Source: a virus
Taxonomy: Duplodnaviria; Heunggongvirae; Uroviricota; Caudoviricetes
Virus record (IMG/VR): IMGVR_UViG_2799113093_000010
DNA: 64,000 bases
Strand: one strand, 5' to 3'
Shown here: positions 20,307 to 64,000 of the stretch, piece by piece
Layout: each line of letters starts with the position of its first letter
How positions within the stretch are numbered: the stretch's first letter is position 1
Program-made: the position numbers and the translations under genes
The notes under the pieces: model-generated
Database searches by the model: none
Told to the model about the DNA's origin: nothing
The model's input: the letters and a program-made list of their open reading frames with translations, nothing else

Positions 20307-20712
20307 TTACCGGGGCGCCTTCAGCGTCGTCGGTGTCGTCAGTGTCTCCGTCGAGCGGAGGCTCGGGCGGCTCCGCGTTGCCCGGTCCGCCCGCGGGAAT
20401 GTCGAGTCCGTAGAGCCGGGCCTGCTGGGCGAGAATCCGCCGGCACACTTCCGCCGAGCGGTGGTCCCCGGCCAGCGCCTTCGGGAAGTGCGCTTTGAAC
20501 AGGGCTTCAGTGCGCTCCACGTACACGTCGAACGCCTGATCCACCAGACGATCCCGGCGCCGGGCAGCCTTGGCCATCTCCCGCTTGATGATCGCGTCGA
20601 CACTCGCCACCGACGCCAGATCCACAGCCTCGGCGATCTGCCGATAGGTCGCGCCGGCCACGAACAGCTGCAGGACCTTCGCGTCCCGCTTCGCCCGCTC
20701 CGGCCCCTTCAC
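20269..20712 (-). CDS. terminase small subunit (about 147 aa)
   Basis: GTG at 20712 overlaps the upstream stop (GTGA). HTH-like N-terminus (ATYRQIAEAVDLASVAS) and acidic C-terminus. The upstream 180 aa of the 324-aa track ORF overlap the methylase gene in another frame. Confidence 0.6.
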   Translation of the reverse strand: MKGPERAKRDAKVLQLFVAGATYRQIAEAVDLASVASVDAIIKREMAKAARRRDRLVDQAFDVYVERTEALFKAHFPKALAGDHRSAEVCRRILAQQARLYGLDIPAGGPGNAEPPEPPLDGDTDDTDDAEGAPVSDLAAWRSRQNA

Positions 20713-21950
20713 GCGCCGCCAGCCAACGACACTTCGCGGCCGTCGAGCACCGGCACCACACCGGTGTGCTCCTCGAACCGGCGCGCGATCACATCGGCGT
20801 ACTTCGGGTCCAGCTCCACGCAGAACGCCCGCGCACCGAGGCCCTGCGCCGCGATGAGCGTCGACCCCGACCCGGCGAACGGATCGAACACCACGCCGCC
20901 CCGAGGGCAGGAGTTCGTGAGCATCGCGGCCACGAGAGCGACGGGCTTCATCGTGGGGTGCTGCTCGTTGCGGGCCGGCTTGTCGACCTGGAACACCGTG
21001 GCCTGGCTGTTGTCGCCGAACCAACGCTCGCCGCCGCGCCCCAAACGGCCATCGCCCCCCGGAGTGAATCCGTACAGTATCGGCTCGTGTTTGTAGTGGT
21101 AGTCCGATCGGCCCATGACGATCGTGTTCTTCACCCACACCAAGTTCTGCCGCACCAGCAGCCCGGCGTCGCGCATCGCGCCCTCGAACGTCACCCGCTC
21201 GGTATCGGCGTGCGCGACGTACACCGGCGCCCCGGGCGCGCACACCGCGGCGACCGTCGCGAACGCGTCATCGAGCAGCCCCCGCAGCCCAGCGGCTCCG
21301 TCGTTCTGGATCGTGAGCGCCTTCTTGGTCTTGCCGACGTAATCCACCCCGTATGGGGGGTCCGTCCAGACGCAGTCGGCGCGCACATCGCCGAATAGGC
21401 GCTCCACAACCAGGTCCGTGTCGGTCGACGAGCCCACCAGCAGCCGGTGCGGTCCCAGCTCCCACACCTTGCCCAGCTCGGACACCGGCTCTTCCGGGCT
21501 CGCCGGGACGTCATCGGGATCCGTCAGCGGCGCATCCGGGAACAGGTCGCGCCGCAGCTCCTCCAGATCGGCGTCCGAGTAGCCAGTGCCCTCCAGGTCC
21601 TCCAGCGAGTCCAGGAGCGCGAACAGCTCGTCGTCGTCATAGTCGCCCAGGTCCGCCAACTTGTTATCTGCAGCAACGATCGCCTTCGCACGCTGGTCAT
21701 CGACGTCAACGAACCAGACCGAAACCTCACTCCAGCCGAGTTTGCTGGCAGCCCGCAGCGTGTGGTTACCCGCCAGAACCTCGTTTTGGCGCCCCGTCAG
21801 CGAACCCCGATTGACCACGAGTGGCTTGTACTGGCCGTTCACAGCCAACGACTCCGCGATGGCGTCGATGCGACCGCGCCGAGGGTTGCCCTCAAACAAG
21901 CGCAGATCGGCCACGGACACCATTGCCGCGGAGTTAGCTGTGATCGACAC
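20709..21950 (-). CDS. ParB-like nuclease domain fused to N6/N4 DNA methyltransferase (413 aa)
   Basis: N-terminal ParB/Srx-like region. The C-terminal part carries DPPY (VWTDPPYGVDY) and an AdoMet-binding motif (VVFDPFAGSGSTLIAA). Confidence 0.8.
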   Translation of the reverse strand: MSITANSAAMVSVADLRLFEGNPRRGRIDAIAESLAVNGQYKPLVVNRGSLTGRQNEVLAGNHTLRAASKLGWSEVSVWFVDVDDQRAKAIVAADNKLADLGDYDDDELFALLDSLEDLEGTGYSDADLEELRRDLFPDAPLTDPDDVPASPEEPVSELGKVWELGPHRLLVGSSTDTDLVVERLFGDVRADCVWTDPPYGVDYVGKTKKALTIQNDGAAGLRGLLDDAFATVAAVCAPGAPVYVAHADTERVTFEGAMRDAGLLVRQNLVWVKNTIVMGRSDYHYKHEPILYGFTPGGDGRLGRGGERWFGDNSQATVFQVDKPARNEQHPTMKPVALVAAMLTNSCPRGGVVFDPFAGSGSTLIAAQGLGARAFCVELDPKYADVIARRFEEHTGVVPVLDGREVSLAGGA

Positions 21951-22318: not shown

Positions 22319-23227
22319 CTACCAGGCTTCGGACGGCTGACCTATCTGGATGTGGGGTTTGCTGTCGCCGCGCTGGGTGTTGCAGTGCAGGTGCGCTGGT
22401 CGGAAGTTGAGCGGGTCCATCGCCAGATCAGGGCGTTCCTTGACGGTCTGTGCGTGGTCCACGCTGAAGCTGTCCGGGTGCGGGAAGGTCAGCGAGTAGT
22501 CGATCGGCCGGTTGTCTAGCCAGCAGATCGCCTGCGTGGCTTCGCACTGGGCACGGAAGTCGGCCTTCAGCTTGCGGTAGGCGCGGCCTTCGGGACGTCC
22601 GGTGGTGTTGTTGAGGTACGGCATCGCAGCCGGGTCGAACGCTGCGGTCGGGTCAGGGTCGGCGCCGTCGTCGTAGTCCGGTGTCTGGTCGACGGTGGGT
22701 GGAGCGTCTGGGTGCTGCTCGTACCAGCGGTGGACAGCCTGCAGCATCCAGGACGGTCGTTCCTTCTTGGCGCGGGGTACCACGACGTCGCGGCCAGGAT
22801 CGATGACGATGACCTGGGCACCGAGCGCCTTGTAGCGGGTCAGGGTCTGGTCGCTGGGTGTGGAGTGGATGACGTACACGTTGGTGTCGGCGATGAGGCG
22901 CAGGGCGGCGTCGATAGCGGCTTGCCGTGCTGCCTGGGTGACCGTCTTCACGTGCTGCGTGTGGTCGTGCTGGCTGCCGTGCGGTGGGGTCAGGGTGCAA
23001 GCCAGGGCGTCGAAGTCGATCGTGATGTCACCGGTACGGGCGTTGGCCTGCACCCAGGTGGACTTGCCAGCAGCAGGCGGCCCGGTCACCACGAACAGCA
23101 CTACACGCCCTCGAACATGAGCGGTGTCTGGCTGTGCGTGCGGTCGTTGCAGTTCCCGGTCACCGTGATCTGCCCGCACGTGGCGCAATGCAGTACGGCG
23201 CCGCTCGTGCATGGATACCAGATCCAC
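22319..23227 (-). CDS. P-loop kinase/ATPase domain fused to HNH endonuclease
   Basis: Walker A VVTGPPAAGKST near the N-terminus. C-terminal HNH-like region (SVDHAQTV...HLHCNTQRGD). The start is uncertain; a GTG near VVLFVV is possible. Confidence 0.7.
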   Translation of the reverse strand: MDLVSMHERRRTALRHVRADHGDRELQRPHAQPDTAHVRGRVVLFVVTGPPAAGKSTWVQANARTGDITIDFDALACTLTPPHGSQHDHTQHVKTVTQAARQAAIDAALRLIADTNVYVIHSTPSDQTLTRYKALGAQVIVIDPGRDVVVPRAKKERPSWMLQAVHRWYEQHPDAPPTVDQTPDYDDGADPDPTAAFDPAAMPYLNNTTGRPEGRAYRKLKADFRAQCEATQAICWLDNRPIDYSLTFPHPDSFSVDHAQTVKERPDLAMDPLNFRPAHLHCNTQRGDSKPHIQIGQPSEAW

Positions 23228-23945: not shown

Positions 23946-24391
23946 GTCACCCGCTCGTGGGATCGGGGCGCGTAGTAGATGCGTGTTGGTGGACCCCACA
24001 GCAGCTCCAGCGGGAACTCGACGTCGTCGAACACGTAGGTGTCCCACTTGTGGGTTGGGGCGGCGCTCCGGGCCTTCATGGAGCGGAAGGTGACCTTGCC
24101 GCCAGAACGGTGCTCCACCACGGCGGCACTGTTCGTGTCGGTCACGCGCAGTTGGTCGATGTCCGGCGACAGGTGCTCGTGGACCAAACGCCGGAGCGCC
24201 TCACAGGCGATTGGCCAGTTCACCGTCTCGTAGCGCACCTTGCGCCCGCGCCGGATCTCGCCAGCGACGAGGTCGAGCAGCAGATGGGTCTTGCCGTACT
24301 GGCGGTCGCCCTTGATCTCGATGAGCGTGACCCGCTCGGGTGCGGTCACAGCGAGTCTTCGGGAGTGCGGGCGATAGCTGCGTTGGCCCAC
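23939..24391 (-). CDS. hypothetical protein with Walker A-like motif (GDRQYGKTHLL)
   Basis: ORF with a P-loop-like motif; start uncertain. Confidence 0.4.
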   Translation of the reverse strand: MGQRSYRPHSRRLAVTAPERVTLIEIKGDRQYGKTHLLLDLVAGEIRRGRKVRYETVNWPIACEALRRLVHEHLSPDIDQLRVTDTNSAAVVEHRSGGKVTFRSMKARSAAPTHKWDTYVFDDVEFPLELLWGPPTRIYYAPRSHERVTW

Positions 24392-24675
24392 ATCAGGGCC
24401 TCCTCCAGCTTCGTCATCGCCAGGGCCTTCTCGCGGCCCGGTGGCAGCACGGCGTCGAGCTGGTGTGCCAGCGCACTGGCACCCGTCCGTACAGCCTCGT
24501 GGACCTGGACCTTCGCATCGGAAGGGCGGTGGTAGTCGAAGCGGTTGTTGATGTCGGCCGTCGAAGCCGGGGTGTTGTGGAACACGACAGGATCTCCTTG
24601 TAGCCAGGTGTGGAAGGTGACGGCGATACCGGACTCGGCGATGGCCATCTGCATGTGCGCGTCGATCACGGGCAT
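24346..24675 (-). CDS. hypothetical protein (about 109 aa)
   Basis: The C-terminal portion of the 165-aa track ORF, starting MPVIDAHMQ..., looks genuine. Confidence 0.35.
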   Translation of the reverse strand: MPVIDAHMQMAIAESGIAVTFHTWLQGDPVVFHNTPASTADINNRFDYHRPSDAKVQVHEAVRTGASALAHQLDAVLPPGREKALAMTKLEEALMWANAAIARTPEDSL

Positions 24676-25794: not shown

Positions 25795-26326
25795 CGGGTT
25801 CTCCTTCGGTGATGACGGGGGTGATGTCGGTGCGGTCGGACAGCATGTCCAGGGCGAGGTCGATGGGGACGCCTTGCAGCCATATCGGGACAGCAGGATT
25901 TGGCATCGCGTCGAGTCTCCTTGTGCCACAACATGTTTAAACTTCCCGTTGTGCGTGCGCAGCGCACCCTCTCCCTGGAGATAAGTCGGGTGTCCTGGGT
26001 GTCGGCCCCGTCTCCGTTCAACAGCAAGAACGGATACCGACTGGGGCCTGATAGCTGCGGCGCCCGCGCGAGGGGCTGGCCGGCGGCCGTGCGCTTATCG
26101 GTGATGTAGCCGGGTTGACGCGACGCACAGACGGGAAGTGGCCTCGGGAAACGAGAGAGCCCCGACCGCTGGGGGTTAGCAGTCGGGGCTCAGCTATCGG
26201 CGCGAAGATACAGCTTCGCTTGCCCACCTGTATAACACGTCACAGCGACCAGCGACGGCAACGCTCACCGAGTGGGTGTGTCGTGCTGATTCGACGCTGG
26301 TTATCCGTGCGGGAGCCTTTGCGTCA

Positions 26327-26581
26327 TCACACTTCCCGTAGCTGCGGTATTGCGCTGATCGGCAAATCCAAGGCGTGCCATAGCCGGAGCACTGTGAAGA
26401 TCCCTGGATTGCGGGTTCGGCCTTCCTCAATCTTCCGGATCGTTCCAAGCGATAGGTCGGTGGAGCGCACCAGATCGTCCAGAGTGACGCCGCGACTCCG
26501 GCGCGCGAAGGCAACATACTCGGCGAGGCTTTCCTCCGGACGTGGCGCGCGGCAGCGAGGCAGCTTCGTCTTGATGCTCAC
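26327..26581 (-). CDS. XRE-family helix-turn-helix transcriptional regulator (84 aa)
   Basis: HTH segment GVTLDDLVRSTDLSLGTIRKIEEGRTRNP. It heads the leftward late block and is divergent from the Dam gene. Confidence 0.7.
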   Translation of the reverse strand: MSIKTKLPRCRAPRPEESLAEYVAFARRSRGVTLDDLVRSTDLSLGTIRKIEEGRTRNPGIFTVLRLWHALDLPISAIPQLREV

Positions 26582-26703
26582 GCTGACCTCCCGTCCGACT
26601 CGTTCTGATCGCTACTATTTTAACGCCCGGTTCGTAGCGTTCTGCTTGTAGCGCCCAAGTATTAACGCTATGATAGTCGCAACTTTAGAGAACGGAGCGC
26701 AGG
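26582..26703. promoter_or_regulatory. divergent intergenic region (HTH gene leftward, Dam gene rightward), locally AT-richer with TTAACGC repeats
   Basis: TATTTTAACGCC and AGTATTAACGCTATGATAGTCGC; contains TATGAT, a -10-like hexamer. Confidence 0.35.
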
Positions 26704-27501
26704 ATGACCGAGGTAGTTGCGGCCCCGTCGAAACCGCCAGCGGCACTGCGGTATCCAGGGGCTAAGTGGTCGCTCGCGCACCTGATCGCCGAGAACTTTG
26801 GCCCTCACTACCACTACGTCGAACCCTACTTCGGCAGCGGCGCAATCTTCTTCTCCAAACCGCCGTCGCCTCACGAGGTGCTCAACGACCTGAACGGACA
26901 AGTCGTTAACCTGTGGAAGATGCTCAGGGACCGTACGGAAGACCTGTGCTGGGCGCTGGAAACAACGCCATGGAGCAGGGACGAGTACAGCATCTCCGAC
27001 GAAGTGACTGGCGATGACCTCGAAGATGCACGGCGTTTCGTCGTACGTGTCTGGCAGGCCCACGCAAGCGATCTCGCGAAGAAGACGGGGTGGAAGAACC
27101 GCGGTGTGCACCAACGGGCAGGCGGTATGTCGCACCGCTGGCAGAAGGTGCCCGACCAACTTCGAGCGCTTGCATGGAGATTGTCGGACGCGGAGATTGA
27201 GAACCGCGACGCCATATCGGTAGTCAAGCGATTCAACGGGCCTGATGTACTGATCTATGCCGACCCTCCTTACCTCCACGAGACACGGACACAGCGGATG
27301 TACGGCGAGGAAGTGGATATAGCTCACCACAAGGAGCTATTGGAAGCGTTAGAGGAGCATCGCGGGCCGGCGGTTATCAGCGGCTACTCGAACGACCTCT
27401 ACGACAAGACGCTTAAGAAGTGGCGTCGCGTAGCGATGAAGGCTCCCAAGGTTGAGAAGGGTGCAGCCCGCGCCGAAGTCATCTGGATCAAGTCAGTTTG
27501 A
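26704..27501 (+). CDS. Dam-family (alpha-class) N6-adenine DNA methyltransferase (265 aa)
   Basis: Motif I YFGSGAIFF near the N-terminus and DPPY (VLIYADPPYLHE) at about residue 185. Its order and spacing match Dam/DpnM. RBS GAGAACGGAG. Confidence 0.85.
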   Translation: MTEVVAAPSKPPAALRYPGAKWSLAHLIAENFGPHYHYVEPYFGSGAIFFSKPPSPHEVLNDLNGQVVNLWKMLRDRTEDLCWALETTPWSRDEYSISDEVTGDDLEDARRFVVRVWQAHASDLAKKTGWKNRGVHQRAGGMSHRWQKVPDQLRALAWRLSDAEIENRDAISVVKRFNGPDVLIYADPPYLHETRTQRMYGEEVDIAHHKELLEALEEHRGPAVISGYSNDLYDKTLKKWRRVAMKAPKVEKGAARAEVIWIKSV

Positions 27502-28288
27502 AGGCTCCCGGCCATAGGTGCGGGAAGTACTCCTTCGCCCTGGTCGCTGGGCTAACGATGGGCGGCTTCTCTAGGGCGAAGCGTGGGGTGACCCACTCAG
27601 CCCAATCCAGCGGTGGCCACCACTTCAGTTGTCCCCCACTGTTTGGAAACCACTGCCACAGCCTGTGTTTACGGCTCCCGATCTGGACAAATCCGTCGAT
27701 CCGAGTTTTCGTGGACTCCCAGGTGATTCCGCCAATGGGATTGAACCCGTACAGGTCCAATTTGTAGCAGGACAGCTGGAATTCGCTCCAATTCGAGCTA
27801 CGCGACAGGATGAGGTATTTACTGCCATCGAGGGCGATATCGTGTTCGGCCGCCGCTAGCTTGTGCCAGGTGGTGATCAGCTCGATGATCGCGGGCCCGG
27901 CCAACTGCGGCTCTGTCACCCAGTTAATCTGCCGATCCAGCAGGTACTCCCTGAACTTCGCGGCAGAGTTGCTGAGCTCGACGAATGCGGCCTTCATGGA
28001 GGCAGGCGCGAACGCCGCCATCTTGCACGAAACCCCGAAGTTCTTCCCGTGGGGGACAAATCGCGTCACGTCGAAAACCCCCTTGTTCTCGGCCGCAACT
28101 CCACCAATGATGCTCGCCAGTCCGCGCTCGAAGTCTCGGAACCCTGGCATAGAACCCTGTGTTGTCTGGTTCTGACCTGATCCGTCCCGGTAGGTGCTCA
28201 GCACCAGCCGAAGTGCTTCCAACTCAACAGGGTTCAGCGCTCTGTCGCGAATTGGCAAGAGCGCGGCGGCGGCTGCCTTGGAACTCAC
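27488..28288 (-). CDS. hypothetical protein, convergent with and overlapping the Dam gene by 14 nt (candidate restriction partner)
   Basis: Last gene of the leftward early block; 266 aa with no recognisable motif. Confidence 0.45.
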   Translation of the reverse strand: MSSKAAAAALLPIRDRALNPVELEALRLVLSTYRDGSGQNQTTQGSMPGFRDFERGLASIIGGVAAENKGVFDVTRFVPHGKNFGVSCKMAAFAPASMKAAFVELSNSAAKFREYLLDRQINWVTEPQLAGPAIIELITTWHKLAAAEHDIALDGSKYLILSRSSNWSEFQLSCYKLDLYGFNPIGGITWESTKTRIDGFVQIGSRKHRLWQWFPNSGGQLKWWPPLDWAEWVTPRFALEKPPIVSPATRAKEYFPHLWPGAFKLT

Positions 28289-28383
28289 CCTGACCGCCTA
28301 TTTCGCCTAGTCCACACTGAGAGGTTCATAGATCTGTTCCTACAGCACACCACTGACAAACAGTCTCTTGGGGCGTCCGACCC

Positions 28384-28779
28384 TCAGCGACGGCGCTGGG
28401 CGACCGTGTGTAGGGCGAGTAGCGCGCCAGCAAGACCCGGGGCATCGACGATCGGGATCCGCGACGGGAACCCTGCAAGAGCGAGCCGGTTGTCCTGGTC
28501 GATGAACACCTCGCCGTCCGCGCACGGCTGCTCACTCAGCGGCACCCGCACTGACCAGCCTCCGTACCCGTCTGGGTCGATGTTGGGCAGCTGCACCAGC
28601 ACGTAGCCCTCACTGGCGAGCAGCGCCGGCAGGACGGAGGCGATCCGGTCGGCGACCTCGTCGGCCGAGCGGACATGCATGTAGGCCGGAGGGTCGCTGA
28701 TGAAGCGTGGTGTGACGTGGCGGCTCACCAGATCGGGTATGCCTGCGATCAGCCGGGTCAGCACCGCGCGGGCCGTCAT
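28384..28779 (-). CDS. hypothetical protein (131 aa)
   Basis: Coupled (4-nt overlap) immediately downstream of the nucleotidyltransferase gene. Confidence 0.45.
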   Translation of the reverse strand: MTARAVLTRLIAGIPDLVSRHVTPRFISDPPAYMHVRSADEVADRIASVLPALLASEGYVLVQLPNIDPDGYGGWSVRVPLSEQPCADGEVFIDQDNRLALAGFPSRIPIVDAPGLAGALLALHTVAQRRR

Positions 28780-29603
28780 GGACTGGTTGTACTCGCCCCC
28801 ACCGACAGGCCACCGACCTCAGCGGCAGGCGTCGCCCAGTGCTCCGTGTACATGTCAACGAGCCAGTCGTCGACCTTCGCCCAGTTGGCTTCCTCGGGCA
28901 GGTCGGCCGTGTTGACCAGATGCTCAAGGTCGCAGGTGATCTCGTCGAGCCGGTCCATCACCTCACGAAGTGACACTTCGCCAGCCCGGACCCGCAGCAG
29001 ATACTCGCGGTGCTCGGCGAGCATCGGCAGGTTGACCCGACCGTCCCGCATCGCTTCGCATCCCTGCAGCCCGAGGCGGATCGCGTGGTAGGCGTACTTG
29101 GTGTCGAAGCCGTACTGGGCGACCAGCTCGGGCCGGTTGGTATGCCGGTGGTGGGTTCCCTCGATCCCGCCACGCTGGCGGTTCAGGTAACCCAGGAAGC
29201 GCTCGCCGGCTGCCTTCGTCACGAACATGTCCGATGCTGCCTGCAGCTGCTCGCCGGCGCGGGTTCTGGTCACGACCTCCGCGTCCGGGAGCCACAGCAG
29301 CAACAGCACCGTCGGATTGCCTGCGGCGGCCAGCCTTGTCCACTTCCGCAGCGAGTAGATGACCAAGTCGAGGTCACCCGGTCCAGAGCGGGCTCCGTCA
29401 GGCTGCGTGCGGTAGATGTACTGCTCGAACTTCTCCAGGCCGATCACGGCCTCGGCTGGTTCGATGCAGATACCCATCTCGTCGCGGTCATCGTCACCGG
29501 TCGTGACGCCGTGCAGGCCAGAGCCGACCTGCCCGAGCAGGATGGTGTTGGCGACCGCGATCTCCCGGTGCCGTGGTGTTCCGTGCCGCTCTTCGGTGCT
29601 CAT
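28776..29603 (-). CDS. Pol-beta superfamily nucleotidyltransferase (275 aa)
   Basis: N-terminal signature LGQVGSGLHGVTTGDDDRDEMG (GS...DxD) plus a third acidic strand (DLDLVIY) about 40 aa later. Confidence 0.6.
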   Translation of the reverse strand: MSTEERHGTPRHREIAVANTILLGQVGSGLHGVTTGDDDRDEMGICIEPAEAVIGLEKFEQYIYRTQPDGARSGPGDLDLVIYSLRKWTRLAAAGNPTVLLLLWLPDAEVVTRTRAGEQLQAASDMFVTKAAGERFLGYLNRQRGGIEGTHHRHTNRPELVAQYGFDTKYAYHAIRLGLQGCEAMRDGRVNLPMLAEHREYLLRVRAGEVSLREVMDRLDEITCDLEHLVNTADLPEEANWAKVDDWLVDMYTEHWATPAAEVGGLSVGASTTSP

Positions 29604-32320: not shown

Positions 32321-33042
32321 CCGAACTCGGTGGGCACGTACACCTGGGTTTGGGAGCGTATGAAATCCGACTCGCGGGGCGGCTGGTCGGACTCAGTAAC
32401 CCGGATCAGGAGCCGCCAACCGCGGGTCTTGGCTGCAGTCGCGGTGTGGATGTTCCACCAGTCCCACGACAGCCACTGGCCGGGCGCGGCGTCCAGGAAG
32501 TCGTGATCGTCCAGGTGCTCGGCGGCGTTCACCGCCTCCGACATCTCGCGGTACAGGCCCGAGTCCTCGCCGTGCTCCAGCCCGATGATGAACGGGCAGC
32601 GCATGAACCGGGTTGGGCAGTCGTTACCGACATGGATGGTGTGGAACCGCGGCGCATACCCCCGAGACTCCAGGTCCGCTTGAATCGACAGCGACGGCGC
32701 ACCCGTGTTCGAGGCGCTCGCCGACATCAGGCTTGCCTCGTGGTCCGTATCGCCGACCCGGCGTGGCACGCCGTCGGTGTGCCAGCCCGGGATCGCAGGG
32801 ATGAACCCGGGCAGCAGCATCGACACCTTCGTATCGACATGCACGTGCTTGTGGTCGCCGACGATCGGTGCCTGCTCCAGACAGCGGCGCACCGCGGGTC
32901 CCCCGAACAGAAGCGCGTTCTCCAGGCTCGCGCGCTCCAAGTTCGGGGTCGCCGGGATGCACATCAGGTCGCGGAACCCGAACACGTCGGTAACCGACGG
33001 TCCGAGTTCCACCGGCGTGACGTTGAACGTGTACGACTTCAC
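32314..33042 (-). CDS. putative Fe(II)/2-oxoglutarate dioxygenase (PhyH-like), paralog A (about 242 aa)
   Basis: GTG at 33042 overlaps the Ro60 stop (GTGA). Motifs GWHTDG (HxD), distal FHTIHVGN, and an Arg about 9 aa later. Paralogous to 42247..42954. Confidence 0.45.
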   Translation of the reverse strand: MKSYTFNVTPVELGPSVTDVFGFRDLMCIPATPNLERASLENALLFGGPAVRRCLEQAPIVGDHKHVHVDTKVSMLLPGFIPAIPGWHTDGVPRRVGDTDHEASLMSASASNTGAPSLSIQADLESRGYAPRFHTIHVGNDCPTRFMRCPFIIGLEHGEDSGLYREMSEAVNAAEHLDDHDFLDAAPGQWLSWDWWNIHTATAAKTRGWRLLIRVTESDQPPRESDFIRSQTQVYVPTEFGW

Positions 33043-34766
33043 AGGTCGCCGCGGGAGAAATCGGCCAGCAGCTGCGGCACTGCGGAGTCGAACCCGGACA
33101 CGTCGAGCTGCCCCGGGTCGGTCGGATCCGCGATGCTGTTGCCGGTCGCGGTCATCGCGACAACCACCAGGCGTGCATCGATGCCCATGGTGTCCCGGTA
33201 CTCGCGGAGCGCCTGGTGCGGATGCATCGACCCGTAGAACGTCTCGTTGTCGGTGTAGACGTGGAACGTGTCGATCTCGATCCGGTTCTTGCGCGCCCAG
33301 ATCATCGGCAGCGCGCAGTCGGTGTTCCCGAAGTCCAGCTCGCCGGTGTAGCGGCACACGTCGTCGAGACGCCGGCGCGGGGTGATGTCCAGCGGCGCCA
33401 CCGCCGTCGCATACCCGCGGAAGTGGCCGGTGCGCGAATGCACGTAGCTGCCAGGCCCGGCGGTGAAGCCGATGATCTGGTGATCCGTCTCGACGTTGGC
33501 AGTGACCAGCGCCAGGGCGGCTGCGGCCTCGCGGCACGACACCGGCAGCCCGGACACCGACCGCGTCATCGACCCGGACACGTCCAGAGCCAGCAGCGTC
33601 CGCTTACCGGCAGGCTCGACCGCGCCATAGGCGTTGTAGAACGCGGCATCGAGCGCGTCGACGATCCGCGCCACCGGCATCCAAGTGGAGTCGCCGCGCG
33701 CCGAGTGGCCCGACGCGTAGGTGCGCAGCGCCACCAGCGCGTTGATCGGATGCACGCGGCCCTTCCGCAGCCGCTCGGAGTCCTGCAGCTGCGCGGCGAC
33801 CTTGTTCCCGATGGTGCCGGCGAGGACACCGAGGCGAGTCAGGCGCGGCAGCTGCCGCATCAGCGCAGTCTGGGGCAGACCGTGCTCGATCAGCGCCTCC
33901 CACACCTCCGGCTTGGTGAGCGCGGCGTCGGGCAGCGCCTCCCACGGAAGAGCGTTGCCACGCTTGATGATCTTCACCCAGTCCCGCGCCGTGGTGGCAC
34001 GCTGCGCGTCCTCGAAGTCGGCGATGATCGCCAGCGGGTGGCCGTCGCTCAGCTCGATATCGGGCAGCTTGGGGCGTGCGGTGTTCCGGTCGCCGGCCTT
34101 CAGCTCGTCCGGGTTCAGCTCGCGGACCTTGTCGGCGTAGTCGTTGAGGCCCTTGCCGACAGCCCAGTTGAACGCGAGGCGCCGCGCCGGGTCCTTCGTG
34201 ACGGGCGAGGAGAGCCGCAGCAGGTCGCGGTGCATCCATCCCTCGCGCTGCCGGTACTTGACCAGCTGGTAGGCGACACGGTCGACGCCCTTGTCCAGAT
34301 ACCAGGAGCCGACCGCACGCTTCATCGCCGGACCCCAGCCACGGAACTGCTCCATGTACTTCACGAACAGGTACAGGTGGGTGCCGGTGCGCGCCACGCT
34401 GGGCAGAGCGGCAGCCGCGGCGCGGCGTCCCTCCACGTCATCGGAGGCTGCGGCGACCGCGAGCGCGAACAGCGCCGGGTTCTGCTTCGGCGCCCGGCCA
34501 GCGACCGACACCTCCACGATGTGCTGCACCAGCCGCACCGGATCCGCGGCGGCGGCACGGAACACCACCTCGGCGTTCTCCCGAGTCAGCTCGGCCGCGT
34601 TGGTGTAGTAGGTGCCGCCGTCGGTACCCAGCGTCAGGAACCGGTGCAGCCTCACCTCGTCGGACACCGCGAACGCGAACCCGCCGGCCGCGTTCTTCAC
34701 CTGCCGGGGGTCCGCCTTCACCGTCTGCGCGGTGCGGCGGGTGCTGATCGTCGAAAGAACGTCCAT
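33039..34766 (-). CDS. rsr: Ro60 ortholog (Rsr): TROVE domain plus C-terminal vWA domain (about 575 aa)
   Basis: TROVE-like N-terminal region (MDVLSTISTRRTAQTVKADPRQVKNAAGGFAFAV..., HLYLFVKYMEQFRGWG). vWA MIDAS motif LALDVSGSMT. RBS CAGAGGAGA before the ATG at 34766. The 115-aa upstream extension in the track ORF overlaps the ncRNA array and is rejected. Confidence 0.8.
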   Translation of the reverse strand: MDVLSTISTRRTAQTVKADPRQVKNAAGGFAFAVSDEVRLHRFLTLGTDGGTYYTNAAELTRENAEVVFRAAAADPVRLVQHIVEVSVAGRAPKQNPALFALAVAAASDDVEGRRAAAAALPSVARTGTHLYLFVKYMEQFRGWGPAMKRAVGSWYLDKGVDRVAYQLVKYRQREGWMHRDLLRLSSPVTKDPARRLAFNWAVGKGLNDYADKVRELNPDELKAGDRNTARPKLPDIELSDGHPLAIIADFEDAQRATTARDWVKIIKRGNALPWEALPDAALTKPEVWEALIEHGLPQTALMRQLPRLTRLGVLAGTIGNKVAAQLQDSERLRKGRVHPINALVALRTYASGHSARGDSTWMPVARIVDALDAAFYNAYGAVEPAGKRTLLALDVSGSMTRSVSGLPVSCREAAAALALVTANVETDHQIIGFTAGPGSYVHSRTGHFRGYATAVAPLDITPRRRLDDVCRYTGELDFGNTDCALPMIWARKNRIEIDTFHVYTDNETFYGSMHPHQALREYRDTMGIDARLVVVAMTATGNSIADPTDPGQLDVSGFDSAVPQLLADFSRGDL

Positions 34767-34793
34767 CGGTGTCTCCTCTGAAATGCGGGTGGG

Positions 34794-34869
34794 GGCAGCG
34801 CGGGCGTGTGAATGACAGCCGGGTTGGTTCCGTTCGAAGGGGATAACCGACCGTCGTCCTGCTCGCGCC
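34794..34869 (-). ncRNA. truncated Y-RNA-like unit (YrlB-like; Ro-binding helix motifs without tRNA-like domain)
   Basis: Carries the GAGCAGGACGACGGUCGGUUAUCC and CACACGCCC motifs shared with the three units upstream. It lacks a T-arm and D-arm. It lies immediately 5' of the rsr RBS. Confidence 0.35.
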
Positions 34870-34902
34870 ACCCCCAACTGGGGCTGTGGCTCGTGTCGCG
34901 AG

Positions 34903-35047
34903 GCGGTGTGGGCGTGTGTTTGCCGACCGGTGTTTTTAGGCGTCCTAGGCCGCTGGACGACGGGGCCGCTATGCAGTCCCGGCAGGATTCGAACCTGCGT
35001 ATCCCGCTCCCGATGCGATAACCGATTGAGCGTCCTGCTCACACCGC
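34903..35047 (-). ncRNA. Y-RNA-like tRNA-mimic ncRNA, unit 3 (YrlA-like)
   Basis: Read on the minus strand it shows, in order: a 5' helix strand with GAGCAGGACGC...CGGUUAUC; a T-arm GCAGG-UUCGAAU-CCUGC; a capped acceptor-like hairpin; a D-arm GUCC-AGCGGCCUA-GGAC; and a 3' strand (CACCGGUCGG...CACACGCCCACACCGC) complementary to the 5' end. Confidence 0.5.
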
Positions 35048-35063
35048 TACGCGACGTTTGTGG

Positions 35064-35205
35064 GGTTGATGCGGGCGTGTGTGTGCTGACCGGGGTTAAG
35101 TGCTCTGCCAACTGAGCTACAGCCGCGAAGCGACTGACGGGACTCGAACCCGCGACCTCTCCATTAGAAGTGGATAACCGACCTGCGTCCTGCTCGCATC
35201 AAACC
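35064..35205 (-). ncRNA. Y-RNA-like tRNA-mimic ncRNA, unit 2 (YrlA-like)
   Basis: T-arm CGCGGG-UUCGAGU-CCCG. Acceptor-like 7-bp hairpin CAGUCGC-UUCG-GCGGCUG with a UUCG tetraloop. D-arm UAGCUCAGUUGGCAGAGCA. Its termini pair (GGUUUGAUGCG / CGCAUCAACC). It carries the conserved GCAGGUCGGUUAUCC motif. Confidence 0.55.
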
Positions 35206-58918: not shown

Positions 58919-60082
58919 TCAGGCGCTACTTTCCCAGTACTGCTCAAGGGCGCCGCGAGCATCCGGTCCCTGGGTCTGCCGCTGTAGGTAGTGAGCCTCG
59001 GTGGTCGCCAGCTTGGCGTGGGACAGCTGCTGCTGGGCCTTGTCCGGGCCGTGGGCGTCGCGGATGACCGTGGCAACTGTGCGCCGGAAGCTGTGCGGCG
59101 TGACCCAGTTCAGTTCTTCGGGCAGGGCCGCGCGGAGGGCTCGCCGTAGGTTGGCCAGGCTTACCCATCCGCCATCTCGATTGACGAACACGGGTCCGTC
59201 CATACCCGACTCCCCGATGAGTGCTGTCAGCGTCTCTACACCGAACTTGGGCAAGATCACGGTGTGCGCGGGGGCATCGGACTTCCGCTCTTCCTGACGA
59301 TGTAGGGGCTTTCCTGCGATGCGACCGTGGTCGATCAAGGTACCGGTGATGGTGAGCGTCGGCGGGTCGGCAAGAAGGTCTACATCGCACCACCGAGTGG
59401 CAAGTACTTCATTCGGGCGGCACCCGGTGGCTACGAGCAGGTCTACGAACGCGGGCAGAAGGCGTCCAGGGCGCGGCCCCGGCGCCTTCCGCTCGGCGTA
59501 CTCGCGAACGGCGGCACGGATCTGTCTAAGCTCTGTCGCGTCGGCTGAGCGAGGCTTTCTCCTGCCGGTGCCGACTGTCTTCGTCTCGCGTATCGGATTG
59601 ACGGGCACCACGTCGAACCGGCACGCCATTGAGTACATCCCCGTCAGCACCATCCGCAGCCGTTTGGCCTGACTCTTAGATGCCATGCCTTGGATGTAGT
59701 TGTGAGCGTCTTGAGTCTCCAGCTCGATGACTCGCAAGGATCCCAGCTGCGCTGCGCCGTGCGTCCTCCAGACCGCCCGATACTGATCAACCGTCTGTTG
59801 CTTAACGCCGTCCTCGGCAGCCTTTGTTTCGACCCATAGGTCGAACAGGTCGCCGAGGGCGGTTTTTTCGTTCACCAGCTGACCAGTTTTCGGTGTCCGG
59901 CGTTTCGCCAAGTGCCGTTGTAGGACGCGTCGAGCATCCTCGGCTGACTTCTCGCTGGACCGCTCTACCCGGCGTCGCTTGCCGTCCGAATCGCGTACGT
60001 AGGTGCTCGCGAAAAACTTTCCACCAGAGGACCGTTGGGTAATGCGGCCATGCTCGCCGGGGCGGAGACGTTCTCTAGGCAT
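58919..60082 (-). CDS. int: tyrosine integrase (387 aa)
   Basis: Catalytic-domain motifs TPHSFRRTVAT and LSHAKLATTEAHY (R...HxxR...Y). Confidence 0.9.
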   Translation of the reverse strand: MPRERLRPGEHGRITQRSSGGKFFASTYVRDSDGKRRRVERSSEKSAEDARRVLQRHLAKRRTPKTGQLVNEKTALGDLFDLWVETKAAEDGVKQQTVDQYRAVWRTHGAAQLGSLRVIELETQDAHNYIQGMASKSQAKRLRMVLTGMYSMACRFDVVPVNPIRETKTVGTGRRKPRSADATELRQIRAAVREYAERKAPGPRPGRLLPAFVDLLVATGCRPNEVLATRWCDVDLLADPPTLTITGTLIDHGRIAGKPLHRQEERKSDAPAHTVILPKFGVETLTALIGESGMDGPVFVNRDGGWVSLANLRRALRAALPEELNWVTPHSFRRTVATVIRDAHGPDKAQQQLSHAKLATTEAHYLQRQTQGPDARGALEQYWESSA

Positions 60083-60824
60083 CCGGCTCGATCTCCCATC
60101 CGCGGTTTGCCATTTCTGCCGTGAGGCGTTCTAGGTCCGCCCGATCAAGGTCGGCCATTGAGCGGATCGCGGCCGGGTTGGCGTCGACAAAGGTCGCTTG
60201 CTGCTCCTCTGACATCGCCGCCACCCTCTCAGCTAGGGCGATGGAATCCTGCAAGATATTCCGTCGGCGTGACAGTTTGATCCGTCGCAGGTTGTCGCGC
60301 TCATCGTCGATCCGGTGGGGGTCTGTTGACCCGTCGATGGAAGACCGGCTGATCTCGCCAGAGAACCACCGCGCAGCCACTATGGACCGGGCGGGCTGCT
60401 GTGGAAGTAGGTCCACTTCGCCATCCGGTAGGGCTGGATAGAGCAACGCGAGAGGTGGCATGTTCATAGCCGCAGCCAAGACGATGAGTTCGGCAACATC
60501 CAGCTTTCCCGACCGGTTGTTGTTCTCGATCTTGGATATTGCAATGCGGCTAATCGGATACCCAAGCGCCGCAGTGCGTTCCCCCATCGCCTCGGCTGTC
60601 AGGTTGTACCGGCGCCGGTAGTCGTAGAGAACCTTTCCTACGCGCGTCGCAATCGCCAACTGCCAGGCCTTCGCATCTACATCAACATGTGGCACCGCCT
60701 TAGTGTCGCATGAGTTCGACCAGAATGCGCCACGCCCGCGCGTATTCGATTGTATTCGGGTCCGTCCGCGCGTAGCATGTAAAGCGACCCCAGGGGCTGT
60801 GTATGGACCAGAATGCAATTTCAT
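60075..60824 (-). CDS. XRE-HTH regulator upstream of and co-directional with int (start uncertain, probably near 60680)
   Basis: HTH segment LTAEAMGERTAALGYPISRIAISKIEN. The first roughly 45 aa of the track ORF are R-rich and overlap a repeat-bearing regulatory region. Confidence 0.5.
   Translation of the reverse strand: MKLHSGPYTAPGVALHATRGRTRIQSNTRGRGAFWSNSCDTKAVPHVDVDAKAWQLAIATRVGKVLYDYRRRYNLTAEAMGERTAALGYPISRIAISKIENNNRSGKLDVAELIVLAAAMNMPPLALLYPALPDGEVDLLPQQPARSIVAARWFSGEISRSSIDGSTDPHRIDDERDNLRRIKLSRRRNILQDSIALAERVAAMSEEQQATFVDANPAAIRSMADLDRADLERLTAEMANRGWEIEPDA
60708..60816. promoter_or_regulatory. 11-bp direct repeat GACCAGAATGC x2 in the regulator/xis divergent region
   Basis: Copies at 60708-60718 and 60806-60816. 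Followed by the xis RBS AAGGAGG. Confidence 0.35.
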
Positions 60825-60867
60825 AGCCGTCTACCAGGGGATTTTCTAGAGCTAAGGAGGCTCAGCA

Positions 60868-61065
60868 ATGGATGAATTAGCCGCGCAGATTAACGCGCGT
60901 CTCTATCCGCTCGAAGAGGTTATGGACCGGTTGCTAGTTGGCCGCACCAAGCTCTATGAGTTGATAGCTAGCGGCCAGCTACGCAGCTTCAAAGTCGGCA
61001 AGAGGCGGGTGGTGTCGGACGCTGCCCTCCGCGAATTTATCGCCGCACTGGACACCGCAGCATGA
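60868..61065 (+). CDS. xis: excisionase (MerR-like HTH) (65 aa)
   Basis: Motif PLEEVMDRLLVGRTKLYELIASGQLRSFKVGKRRVV. Strong RBS. Adjacent to int. Confidence 0.7.
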   Translation: MDELAAQINARLYPLEEVMDRLLVGRTKLYELIASGQLRSFKVGKRRVVSDAALREFIAALDTAA

Positions 61066-61212
61066 AGCACCTGGCGCAGGAATCTCATCCCGATTTAGGT
61101 CTCGATCCTGCCGCCGACCTGACCGAAGACATGCGAATGGCCCCCGTAATTCCTGGTGCGTCAACACCGGGCGAGGGCCACTCCGACTACCCATCTGAGA
61201 ACAGGAGTCACC

Positions 61213-61905
61213 ATGAATCTACAGCCATCTGAGCGTTCACGGCAAGCTCTGTGCTGCGAATGCGGCCAGCTGCGAACATGTGTCCACCCCCGTAACCACG
61301 TGCTCGGTGGCTTGGGGCTCTACACGCCATTCGGTGACGGGCACCGCGAGGTGTGCGAGCTGAAATGCGACCACTGCGGACGACGTACCCGCCATGCCCT
61401 TCTCATGCGCGCTTACCAAGACCATGACGAGTGCATGCAGAAAGTGGCCCTCGGTGACCCCCACGATGGTTACACGGATGCCGAGTTGGATCGGTTGCGC
61501 GATAACTACCGAAACGGTCTGCCCCGCAACCCGTTTCTTGAGCACATGTTCTACACGGCGGACCTAGAGAAGGCGCGCGCCGCAGGCGATACGACCGCCA
61601 GAACGCTATGCGGAGAGGTTGTTGAGATAGACGACAGCCGCTTCGACTACGGGGCTATGCATGAGGTTCAGGACTACCGGGCGCCGGGCGAGGTTCGGGA
61701 CCAGGAATACGAAGACCCCAAGACGGGCCTGTGGTGGGTTGAGCAGGAATGCGTTGACTGCCTACGCATTTCGAATCAGATGGCCGCGAGATCCAAGCGT
61801 GATGAGCTATTGGGCGCTTTGTCGAACCTCCTAGCCAACCTACAGAACTATGACACGGCTTCGGTGGAACGGCTGCTGTCGGCGGTACAGGCGGTGGCAC
61901 GGTGA
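61213..61905 (+). CDS. hypothetical Cys-rich protein (about 230 aa)
   Basis: RBS GAGAACAGGAG before the ATG at 61213; motif CCECG...C...CDHCG. Confidence 0.45.
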   Translation: MNLQPSERSRQALCCECGQLRTCVHPRNHVLGGLGLYTPFGDGHREVCELKCDHCGRRTRHALLMRAYQDHDECMQKVALGDPHDGYTDAELDRLRDNYRNGLPRNPFLEHMFYTADLEKARAAGDTTARTLCGEVVEIDDSRFDYGAMHEVQDYRAPGEVRDQEYEDPKTGLWWVEQECVDCLRISNQMAARSKRDELLGALSNLLANLQNYDTASVERLLSAVQAVAR

Positions 61906-62213
61906 ACGTCAAATCGATGCCCATACAGGACATTCACGACGAGTTGTTCCGCCGCATGGTGGAGAACTATGACGCCACGGTTCCGTGCCAGCATCACGGC
62001 GGCTGTGACCGTCCGGCGAAGTGGGTGGCGGTGTTTCACGGAACCTGCCCAAGCGTCGCAGTGTGCACCCGCCACATGAAAGCGTGGGTGGCGACGATGA
62101 CCGAGGGGGTACGTGAGGGCCAGGACCTGGCGTGCTACCAGTGTCATCGGCGCTTCTTTTTCACCCTTAGTGAGCTGGTCACGTTCCACCGCCTCGACAG
62201 GGCAGGTGGGTGA
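61902..62213 (+). CDS. hypothetical Cys/His-rich protein (103 aa)
   Basis: GTG start overlaps the upstream stop (GTGA). Confidence 0.4.
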   Translation: MNVKSMPIQDIHDELFRRMVENYDATVPCQHHGGCDRPAKWVAVFHGTCPSVAVCTRHMKAWVATMTEGVREGQDLACYQCHRRFFFTLSELVTFHRLDRAGG

Positions 62214-62399
62214 GTGCACTTGGACTACGCCGAAGAGCTAGGGAGCCCCGCACGGGCCACCGCATACACGGTGACAGGCGCTGATCTGCGCGACTGCCCC
62301 GAGTGCGGTGAGCCTGCGGGGCTCCCGTGTAAGTGGCCTAACGGGCGGCGACGAAACATGCCCTGTTGGTCGCGGTGGCACCCTAAGGAGGCCGCGTGA
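62214..62399 (+). CDS. hypothetical small protein (61 aa)
   Basis: CPECGEPAGLPC motif. Confidence 0.35.
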   Translation: MHLDYAEELGSPARATAYTVTGADLRDCPECGEPAGLPCKWPNGRRRNMPCWSRWHPKEAA

Positions 62400-63151
62400 G
62401 CGAGTGGCATCGGCACACATGGAACAAAGGCATGCTCCGCTCTACGGACTTCTCGGCGGCGGACAAGCTGGCGCTGTGCTTCTGCGCGGTCTACTCGACG
62501 TACGGCACCGAGGACACGTTTAGCGTGCGCCAGAGCACCATTGCGGCCAATACAGGGCTAAGCGAGCGGTCGGTCCGGCACGCATTCAAGTTGGCCCGAG
62601 AGCTGGGCTGGCTGGAGCTGGTCACGGAGCGTCAGCGCGGCAGCCGAGGGAAGTCGGATCAGTATCGGCTAGTAATACCCGACACTGTGTCGCCTACTTG
62701 CCCCGTAGAAGTACCGGCAGAATATGCCGCTACTCCGATCGGTTTACCGGCAGAGAATGCACCCGAGTACCGGCAAAATATGTCAAAAGTACCGGAAGAG
62801 ACCGAAGCTCCTACCAGCGGAAATGACGCGCCTTTAGGTTATGTACTTAGGTTTTTAGAGGAGGGTGCGGCGACGCCGCCCCCCGCCCCCCTTCTCGATC
62901 ATCTCGGACAACCCCGCTGTCGTAAGCACTTCGGCGTAGAGAACCCACCCGACTGTCCGCCGTGCGGTCTGGAACGCGAACGCAAAGAGACCCTTGATCG
63001 ATTCAAGGCCGACCGCATCGAGGCAGAGCGCCGCGCCATCCGGGCCGCTATCGACAGCTGCCCCAACAAATGCGACGACGCGGGACGGCTAGACGACCTA
63101 TCCGATTGCCCCCTGCACCCGAACTTCCGACAGAAGAGGGACGTGGCATGA
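62396..63151 (+). CDS. winged-helix DNA-binding protein (251 aa)
   Basis: wHTH-like segment FSVRQSTIAANTGLSERSVRHAFKLARELGWLELV; C-terminal Cys cluster. Confidence 0.5.
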   Translation: MSEWHRHTWNKGMLRSTDFSAADKLALCFCAVYSTYGTEDTFSVRQSTIAANTGLSERSVRHAFKLARELGWLELVTERQRGSRGKSDQYRLVIPDTVSPTCPVEVPAEYAATPIGLPAENAPEYRQNMSKVPEETEAPTSGNDAPLGYVLRFLEEGAATPPPAPLLDHLGQPRCRKHFGVENPPDCPPCGLERERKETLDRFKADRIEAERRAIRAAIDSCPNKCDDAGRLDDLSDCPLHPNFRQKRDVA

Positions 63152-63315
63152 CGCAATTACGCCTGTATCAGAACTGCCCCATCTGCTACCGGTTGGTCAA
63201 CTCCTACGAATCGGCACCACGCCGATACGGCCATGACGCCTGCGGTAAGGCCCTTTTGAGCTGGAACTGGGAAGCCATGGACGACGACACCACTACCGAA
63301 AGCCAAGCGCAATGA
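63148..63315 (+). CDS. hypothetical small Cys protein (55 aa)
   Basis: ATGA coupling; motif CPICY...C. Confidence 0.35.
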   Translation: MTQLRLYQNCPICYRLVNSYESAPRRYGHDACGKALLSWNWEAMDDDTTTESQAQ

Positions 63316-63584
63316 CCAATGATGACGACGATCTGACAGCCGAAGAATGGGCCGAGGTATGCGTAGTGGCAGCCAGATTCGATTGGATCGTCACGCCTCC
63401 AACGAAGGCCGCCGATCTACTGCCGAAGATGCTGGAGATAAACGCACTCCAAAAGCTGGAGAACGAAATCATGGATGCCCACGGCGACTGGTTAGCGAGC
63501 ACCCGTCAGTACTTCGAGGAACGCGGGTGGCCCTGGACCACAGAGGAACTCAATAGGCGCTACCAGTTGGGGCAATGGCAGTGA
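63312..63584 (+). CDS. hypothetical protein (90 aa)
   Basis: ORF. Confidence 0.4.
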   Translation: MTNDDDDLTAEEWAEVCVVAARFDWIVTPPTKAADLLPKMLEINALQKLENEIMDAHGDWLASTRQYFEERGWPWTTEELNRRYQLGQWQ

Positions 63585-63991: not shown

Positions 63992-64000
63992 AGAAGGCCG

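Follow-up and report, generated by a model that had tools for sequence, protein, structure and literature searches.

A probable BalI/MscI-type restriction-modification module with an accessory XRE-family regulator, carried as cargo by a Mycobacteroides abscessus prophage

The window, by which we mean the whole stretch of 64,000 nucleotides analysed here (IMG/VR virus record IMGVR_UViG_2799113093_000010), contains a compact module made up of a methylase gene (M, 265 aa, ATG start), an endonuclease gene (R, 266 aa, GTG start) and a small XRE-family gene (C, 84 aa), with the features listed in Table 1. M and R converge, while C diverges from M. Both larger open reading frames, together with the overlap of their 3' ends, stand in the open reading frame list just as a preliminary description of this DNA had reported them. 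The same description regarded M as the only plus-strand gene between two leftward blocks, and the NCBI gene calls on identical DNA agree, M being the sole opposite-strand gene between ~23.5 and 33.8 kb of the window.

Table 1. Features of the module and its immediate surroundings (positions in the window; a dot marks a feature without strand; L numbers denote related cassettes described in the text)
Feature	Position	Strand	Basis and remarks
Terminator-like hairpin, 14-bp stem	26157..26191	-	Downstream of the HTH gene; outside the block common to L001
XRE-family HTH protein, candidate controller (C)	26327..26581	-	HTH_19, E 8.4e-8; divergent from M
Divergent C/M regulatory region	26582..26703	.	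122 bp; seven-cassette alignment; promoter and operator roles putative
D12-class (alpha) N6-adenine DNA methyltransferase (M)	26704..27501	+	PF02086, PADLOC MTase_II, orthology to BalI/MscI partner methylases; predicted target TGGCCA
M/R 3' overlap	27488..27501	.	14 nt, convergent; from the ORF coordinates; identical 14-nt overlap in L001, L088, L089, L090 and L091
Type II restriction endonuclease (R), BalI/MscI family, PD-(D/E)XK fold	27488..28288	-	PADLOC REase_II; MscI homology
Spacer between the early gene (28384..28779) and R	28289..28383	-	95 bp; sequence not conserved with other cassettes

We are confident that these open reading frames are genes and not chance occurrences, because their GC3 is 0.72-0.74, their best family matches reach E ~1e-123 and their pairwise dN/dS against the related cassette of locus L001 is low (M 0.032, R 0.055, C 0.083, at dS of 1.3-1.7). 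Such low values also imply purifying selection, with M, R and C all kept as functional genes.

The methylase carries motif I YFGSGAIFF (FxGxG) at about residues 42-50 and motif IV DPPY at about residues 187-190, separated by the target-recognition region in the order that defines the D12 (alpha) class, and its residues 17-239 match PF02086 (MethyltransfD12; E 8.2e-33, 114.6 bits against a cut-off of 22). The PADLOC MTase_II model PDLC03244 matches it at E 1.7e-123. The preliminary description had assigned it to the Dam family, which holds at the level of the alpha/D12 class, with motif I followed by motif IV. On the other hand, we rejected the enzyme as a Dam (GATC) orthologue, since it scores far under the cut-offs of both TIGR00571 (53.5 bits against 114.85) and NF008152/PRK10904 (25 bits against 441). 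The Dam and DpnM sequences of the PDB align only to its N-terminal ~80 residues. Much closer are the partner methylases of two restriction endonucleases: it shares 79% identity over 251 aa with the MscI-type partner methylase of M. luteus, whose gene is convergent with that of an MscI-type endonuclease on a Micrococcus luteus plasmid, and 70% over 268 aa with the Curtobacterium albidum partner P0149. Its homologues are named merely 'DNA adenine methylase', and the annotations of Mycobacteroides abscessus subsp. massiliense include an identical methylase.

The 266-aa protein had been described as belonging to no recognisable family. This is correct for Pfam, PHROGs and NCBIfam, in which no match was found, and incorrect in view of the full-length match to the REBASE-derived PADLOC model PDLC03417 (REase_II; residues 13-263, E 1.9e-122) and of the MscI family to which the protein belongs. 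Searches of the PDB sequences with phmmer and with the family profile returned just spurious repeat-protein or Vpx/Dps matches, and Foldseek against the PDB gave nothing significant. A restriction-enzyme fold, which the preliminary description had proposed to look for, was found: the protein has the alpha-beta-beta-beta-alpha-beta core of the PD-(D/E)XK superfamily, and its structural neighbours include ThaI, NaeI, EcoRV and SwaI, which are all blunt cutters. In BFVD, one uncultured-phage protein has a fold resembling that of the endonuclease (E 1e-11, TM 0.6, 16% identity).

The endonuclease is intact at every family-invariant position, namely E54 (helix 50-61), E67, D73 (start of strand 74-76), S87-x-K89 (strand 83-92) and E104 (strand 103-107). 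Candidate catalytic residues are E54 or E67, D73, S87-x-K89 and E104, which would lie on the elements that bear the PD-(D/E)XK active site. The motif is non-canonical in having a serine (S87-x-K89) where PD-(D/E)XK has an acidic residue; HinP1I and MspI have Q and N, respectively, at the (D/E) position. A possible alternative start, TTG at 28258, coincides with the point where the homology between cassettes begins, and the first ~10 codons of R are context-specific, as is the region upstream of them.

Cluster look-ups placed two named enzymes within the same endonuclease family: P0258 (261 aa), recorded as 'MscI restriction endonuclease, Micrococcus sp. NEB 502', and P0021 (BAA11515.1 / P71102), recorded as 'restriction endonuclease [Curtobacterium albidum]'. 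The window endonuclease shares 67% identity with MscI over 254 aa and 54% with BAA11515/P71102 over its full length, and these two are 56% identical to each other. According to a taxonomy look-up, 'Brevibacterium albidum' is the same taxon as Curtobacterium albidum (taxid 2036). Brevibacterium/Curtobacterium albidum is the source of BalI, and from this species match BAA11515, whose record says just 'restriction endonuclease', would be the BalI enzyme. BalI is an isoschizomer of MscI, both cutting TGG^CCA to leave blunt ends. The recognition site of MscI is TGGCCA (PMC7720504). Since the window enzymes fall inside the span of two systems sharing one specificity, our best prediction for the target of the window system is TGGCCA with m6A protection, which we consider likely, bearing in mind that a specificity read from 54-79% identity to characterised enzymes could have drifted.

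The likeness to MscI and BalI extends beyond the family-invariant residues, all of which are present in the window endonuclease, to the gene arrangement, the genes of the M. luteus locus being likewise convergent and end-overlapping. Differences are that the window system is carried by a temperate phage and that a DUF6262 domain is added at the N terminus of the MscI-type methylase, in place of which the window has a stand-alone divergent XRE gene. The BalI-type methylase (P0149, 280 aa) is without the DUF6262 domain.

It had also been suggested that the recognition motif might be under-represented in the phage genome. TGGCCA, of which the prophage has 19 sites, is indeed depleted, with an observed/expected ratio of 0.58 in the phage and of 0.66 and 0.39 in related loci, but AGGCCT is depleted as strongly, so that the depletion is not specific to TGGCCA and speaks for it weakly. 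In a palindrome-avoidance scan of the flanks of the loci with a convergent methylase (see below), no A-containing palindrome stood out. The papers on M. abscessus methylomes report no 6mA motif, and a literature search on BalI, M.BalI and M.MscI found nothing relevant.

The reading of M and R as a restriction-modification pair, one of the two offered by the preliminary description, is borne out by the endonuclease family match, by the MscI homology and by the linkage of the two genes across the family. A species-level scan (one genome per species) gave 181 loci, 80 of which were fetched; with L001 and L002, 82 were examined. A D12 methylase adjoins the endonuclease homologue in 80 of the 82, the exceptions being L075, which is a 1.6-kb contig, and L027, with no methylase within the 12.7 kb fetched. 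Two groups can be distinguished among these loci. In 28, mainly from Actinomycetota, the methylase is convergent and tail-to-tail with an endonuclease at least 40% identical to that of the window, the methylases being 63-96% identical. The other 52, mainly from Chloroflexota, have a divergent and more distant D12 methylase, and their endonucleases are 33-39% identical to that of the window.

The closest cassettes share the HTH-M-R order and a C/M spacer of 109-122 bp. Orthologues of the XRE protein, 73-86% identical, occupy the same position in L001, L003, L088, L089, L090 and L091, and the recognition-helix region is invariant, with an invariant segment TDLSLGTIRKIEEGRTRNPG. These cassettes are found in three unrelated contexts: on Mycobacteroides chromosomes with a MarR gene on one side and a resolvase on the other (L001; L088, M. 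chelonae; L089; L091, M. abscessus), on a prim-pol/DUF3987 island of Mycolicibacter arupensis (L090), and in the window prophage. The DNA similarity between the window and L001 begins at ~26322, at the HTH stop codon, and ends ~10 codons inside R. The XRE gene thus belongs to the restriction-modification module and co-transfers with M and R. The preliminary description had raised the possibility of a C-protein-like controller, and this gains ground from the conservation of both the gene position and the intergenic footprint along with M and R in non-phage loci; a regulatory action would fit this pattern.

The footprint lies at ~26634..26682 and reads GTAGCGT-N7-GTAGCG-N12-CGCTAT followed by GATAGT. 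In the seven-cassette alignment GTAGCGT, GTAGCG and CGCTA(C/T)GATAGT are invariant, and the spacers diverge in L090. The last conserved element contains a TANNNT hexamer, TATGAT (26669..26674), ~30 nt upstream of the M start codon, and a ribosome-binding site for M, GGAG, is found at 26693..26696. We infer that the conserved repeats form a putative operator overlapping an M promoter with a -10 of the TATGAT type. A scan with the sigma-70 consensus returned no promoter for M, C or R, and none in the C/M intergenic region. Some of the GTAGCG repeats are direct repeats spaced by 14 bp, an unusual arrangement for the site of an XRE dimer.

As in C proteins, the product is a small XRE-type HTH protein encoded within a restriction-modification module, but its gene does not precede R in a common transcript: it lies beyond M and is divergent, as in the exception represented by Kpn2I. 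Among solved structures its best match is a generic XRE protein, 2ofy (E 7e-4), and it has no significant similarity to the solved C proteins (C.BclI, E 0.96).

The structural genes of the window (2.4-20.3 kb, minus strand) share 76-77% nucleotide identity with prophiT37-1, prophiGD43A-5 and Typha/Bipper-like mycobacteriophages. Both prophiT37-1 and prophiGD43A-5 are M. abscessus prophages of cluster MabK (PMC8092301, PMC9934374). A tyrosine integrase is encoded at 58919..60082, and five contigs encode the exact endonuclease protein, among them an NCBI contig of 857 kb (GCA_900133725.1). Considering the integrase, the MabK-like structural genes, the 857-kb contig and the annotated identical methylase together, we conclude that the window is an integrated prophage, temperate and MabK-like, from Mycobacteroides abscessus subsp. 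massiliense. The phage also encodes a second, unrelated methylase at 20709..21950.

Within this prophage the cassette is self-contained cargo, in all probability horizontally acquired. Its GC content is 0.594 against 0.652 in the rest of the window. Moreover, three sites are nearly absent from the backbone (observed/expected counts: CTCGAG 1/22.7, TCCGGA 1/17.5, GAGCTC 3/26.9), whereas of the three TCCGGA sites in the window two, and of the four GAGCTC sites one, are inside the 2-kb cassette, which indicates that the cassette has not acquired the avoidance pattern of the backbone. We considered the avoidance of CTCGAG, TCCGGA and GAGCTC as a clue to the restriction site and rejected it, since the cassette itself contains TCCGGA and GAGCTC and homology favours TGGCCA. 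The prophage prophiGD43A-5 is syntenic on both sides of the cassette and has other genes between the equivalents of ~25.4 and ~30.1 kb of the window, which marks this as a variable cargo region; both prophiGD43A-5 and prophiT37-1 combine a related backbone with different genes at the cassette position. R, which had been taken for the last early gene, is rather a part of the cassette and not native to the phage, the similarity to L001 ending inside it. A cassette-free copy of the prophage was sought via the neighbouring 131-aa gene, and every contig with that gene has the cassette.

In MabK prophages, toxin-antitoxin genes have been described as cargo amid the early lytic genes; they often lie on the opposite strand, and lysogens express them (PMC8092301, PMC9934374). 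The same two papers contain no restriction-modification cassette, 'restriction' appearing just in general remarks. A tblastn search with the endonuclease against 50,697 GenBank phage records gave no match, and neither did a megablast search of phages with the cassette or an IMG/VR scan for relatives; tblastn against plasmids gave one match, in M. luteus. The module is an ordinary kind of bacterial defence in an uncommon carrier.

Taken together, we consider it highly probable that the three genes constitute a complete BalI/MscI-type type II restriction-modification system, in which the XRE protein would be an accessory regulator, and that an M. abscessus prophage carries the whole as cargo. 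The closest precedent for its layout is Kpn2I, in which C, M and R are separate transcription units and C and M diverge over a short intergenic region; R has a weak promoter that does not depend on C, the strong promoter of M is repressed by C, and the methylase accumulates early and then falls to a low steady state (PMC6237814). The layout of the window is the same, with conserved repeats over the putative M promoter. The proteins, on the other hand, are unrelated, the Kpn2I site is TCCGGA, and the window HTH protein is not detectably a homologue of C.Kpn2I or of the C family. A further difference is that C.Kpn2I binds within the coding sequence of its own gene, where it forms a roadblock, while the window repeats, with their putative regulatory role, are intergenic.

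On this basis we propose the following working for the target specificity, the action of the regulator, the expression timing of each gene and the defence phenotype. The methylase would place an N6-methyl group on the adenine of the predicted TGGCCA site, in the host chromosome as well as in the phage DNA, and the PD-(D/E)XK endonuclease would cut the unmethylated site, predictably at TGG^CCA with blunt ends. A lysogen would in this way destroy incoming unmodified DNA, such as that of other phages and plasmids, and the module would also penalise the loss of the prophage. The 84-aa XRE protein would most likely bind the GTAGCG repeats and repress both the methylase promoter and its own, as does C.Kpn2I, giving a burst of methylase upon entry of the phage into a naive cell and a low steady level thereafter. 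R, which has no conserved promoter of its own, would probably depend on weak transcription and/or read-through from the upstream phage genes. Since entry into a naive cell confronts a temperate phage with the problem of establishment that a plasmid-borne restriction-modification system also meets, such a circuit would be pre-adapted to its carrier.

The penalty on prophage loss could also be the main effect of the module, with phage defence as a by-product. Post-segregational killing by type II restriction-modification systems is established, and here cells freed of the prophage would dilute out the methylase and then be cut by residual endonuclease, so that the module would stabilise the prophage or itself. 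In line with this, the module moves alone across unrelated contexts (next to a resolvase, on a prim-pol island, at an IS-flanked plasmid locus and in a prophage), the cassette is compositionally foreign, and the overlapping convergent genes are inherited as a unit. Addiction and defence are, however, not exclusive, one molecular mechanism yielding both, and we regard it as unlikely that addiction is the principal effect.

The position of R in relation to the early operon deserves attention as well. R shares its strand with the early genes and lies 95 bp downstream of them, and we found neither a promoter-like nor a terminator-like site in this spacer, so that transcription of the early operon can run on into R. 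Such read-through would be antisense to M and sense into C, and might shift the R:M ratio during lytic growth. Past C, the terminator-like hairpin, with its 14-bp stem, may end leftward transcription ahead of the late genes. One could therefore imagine R, as the final gene of the early operon, cleaving the unmethylated chromosome of a naive host while the methylated phage DNA is spared, with host shut-off and a supply of nucleotides as the outcome. Against this, the phage is temperate, with its integrase and its occurrence in an 857-kb contig, and uncontrolled cleavage of the host would block lysogeny; furthermore, the same cassette is kept in chromosomes without an upstream phage operon. We find this use of R quite improbable. 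Also improbable is a broader proposal in which the stand-alone XRE protein would be an undescribed type of restriction-modification controller, unrelated to the canonical C family and acting on 14-bp-spaced GTAGCG repeats and the promoter-less R would be wired into the early lytic operon, giving the module a double duty: in the lysogen, quiet defence and addiction dominated by the methylase, and in lytic growth, the cutting of a newly entered host's unmethylated chromosome.

The XRE protein might instead be a phage regulator, of late genes or of immunity, that merely adjoins the M/R pair without controlling it. It resembles a generic XRE protein, its matches among solved structures include an 'immunity repressor protein' (E 0.018), its gene sits at the early/late junction on the main coding strand of the phage, and no such gene accompanies most convergent-clade loci. 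These points are outweighed by the orthologues at the identical position, with the 109-122 bp spacer, in non-phage chromosomal and island loci, by the DNA similarity to these loci that begins exactly at the XRE stop codon, and by the intergenic footprint that is conserved along with the gene, all of which make a resident phage regulator very unlikely. An orphan methylase, the other alternative of the preliminary description, which would protect the phage DNA from host restriction or regulate genes next to a 266-aa protein that is not its nuclease partner, is scarcely credible: solitary methylases are often carried by phages, this phage does hold its second methylase, and the methylase family (more than 1100 proteins) outnumbers the endonuclease family (132 in one search, 181 loci in the species scan), so that some relatives may be solitary, but the orphan reading is contradicted by the MscI homology of the 266-aa protein, its restriction-enzyme fold, its intact invariant positions, the purifying selection on it and the D12 methylase found beside its homologues at 80 of the 82 loci.

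Phage therapy is directed at M. abscessus, among whose clinical isolates phage susceptibility and transformability vary widely and unpredictably. If the restriction-modification reading is true, a strain that gains a prophage-borne system of the TGGCCA type would become restrictive towards therapeutic phages and plasmids that lack the modification, and its genome would bear an additional m6A mark. The TGGCCA prediction is cheap to check because the homologous enzyme, MscI, is commercial. We consider the relevance of the module modest and limited to phage therapy and genetics in M. abscessus and to the swapping of regulators.

With respect to the latter, a single endonuclease family is found with four regulatory arrangements, namely no regulator in the BalI type, the DUF6262 domain fused to M in the MscI type, a divergent XRE gene of its own in the Mycobacteroides type and the classical C-R operon in a distant clade, which makes it a tidy example of regulator swapping in restriction-modification systems and does not change the understanding of how these systems work. 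In the other convergent-clade loci, candidates for a divergent HTH gene are mostly spurious high-GC open reading frames, L022 being a possible exception; the absence of an HTH gene from most of these loci indicates that the endonuclease family does not require a controller. The classical C systems (PvuII, EcoRV, Esp1396I, AhdI, BclI), built on a C-R operon and a C-box, have in common with the proposed circuit the purpose of delaying or limiting R relative to M. They differ from it in that C does not precede R in the window, which precludes the classical joint transcript of the two, and in that the window is without a C-box of the GACT/AGTC type. Their architecture is found instead in the distant clade, where 40 of the 52 divergent loci have an XRE open reading frame of 70-105 aa immediately upstream of R on the same strand. 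With its product weakly similar to C.AhdI (E 8e-4) and C.BclI (E 7.5e-3), this XRE-R arrangement is a classical C-R operon.

We found that the homology between different cassettes begins exactly at a TTG codon (window 28256..28258, minus strand), the eleventh codon of the annotated ORF of the restriction endonuclease R (...TTGCCAATTCGCGAC...). The N-termini of MscI and of the Curtobacterium enzyme lie only 2-3 residues ahead of the equivalent position. The true start of R may lie at this TTG and not at the GTG of position 28288.

At the structural level, a Foldseek search of BFVD returned only one viral protein with a predicted fold clearly similar to that of the endonuclease, namely A0A6J5LH57 from an uncultured Caudovirales phage (270 aa; E 1e-11, TM 0.6, 16% identity). 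A0A6J5LH57 may represent a further phage-borne restriction enzyme of the same structural group as R.

The relatives of the cassette differ in their regulatory partners. MscI-type partner methylases, such as the one encoded on an M. luteus plasmid (locus L087) and the family protein P0135, carry an extra N-terminal DUF6262 domain of about 110 aa, which stands where the cassette in the window has its separate XRE gene. RefSeq labels the whole MscI-type methylase "DUF6262 family protein", and we propose that the domain may bind DNA and act as a regulatory part fused to the enzyme. In the distant clade (loci L028 to L082), which comprises Chloroflexota and other distant relatives, the endonuclease family is accompanied by a divergent D12 methylase, and a small XRE ORF (consensus RFGEKLRxLR..TLKELA..LGY.AHGYISELE.GKK.PT) is found directly upstream of R, for example at 5083..5304 in L047 and 5728..5994 in L030. 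This arrangement is a classical C-R operon. Few palindromes are as strongly depleted in the flanks of these loci as TGGCCA, which has an observed/expected ratio of 0.39.

To the left of the window cassette, a strong terminator-like hairpin (see the table) sits in the non-coding gap of about 400 bp that separates the HTH gene from the next leftward phage gene, and falls beyond the block common to other cassettes.

Features of the window and of a related plasmid locus
Feature	Location	Strand	Details
Terminator-like hairpin	window 26157..26191	-	14-bp stem, 10 G-C pairs
DNA methylase unrelated to cassette methylase M	window 20709..21950	-	ParB_N domain and N6_N4_Mtase (PF01555, E 5e-19)
109-aa protein, Acb2/Tad1 hairpin domain	window 24346..24675	-	PF24729, E 1.6e-22
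AAA_33 protein	window 22319..23227	-	counterpart in the syntenic prophage prophiGD43A-5 annotated polynucleotide kinase
RlaP nucleotidyltransferase	window 28776..29603	-	PF10127, described as "RNA repair pathway"
Ro60/TROVE protein	window 33039..35111	-	E 8e-49 and 6e-60
Tyrosine integrase	window 58919..60082		
MscI-type partner methylase with DUF6262	L087 3761..4906	-	M. luteus plasmid pCW.Ay

Outside the cassette (whole window minus 26300..28300), we observed a very strong avoidance of CTCGAG (1 site against 22.7 expected), TCCGGA (1 against 17.5) and GAGCTC (3 against 26.9), and CTAG was also low (27 against 60.5). The hexamer avoidance probably reflects host restriction systems of XhoI-, Kpn2I/BspEI- and SacI-like specificity.

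Besides M, the phage encodes a second methylase, probably a solitary phage enzyme, whose gene adjoins the terminase region. Its homologues carry the annotation "DNA methylase" in Gordonia and Arthrobacter phages as well as in MabL prophages of M. abscessus. The Acb2/Tad1 domain family is associated with anti-CBASS and anti-Thoeris sponges, which take up cyclic-nucleotide immune signals, and for this reason the 109-aa protein may be the product of a counter-defence gene, located about 2 kb from the defence cassette. The RlaP, Ro60/TROVE and AAA_33 genes are all RNA-related, and taken together they suggest that phages of this group have a module for RNA repair or of the Ro type.

Finally, the integrase gene is followed, up to position 64000, by a region of lower GC content (0.60-0.62) whose plus strand carries HTH_36 and DUF6315-like ORFs; the stretch 58919..64000 may correspond to the immunity/attachment end of the prophage or to a neighbouring element.
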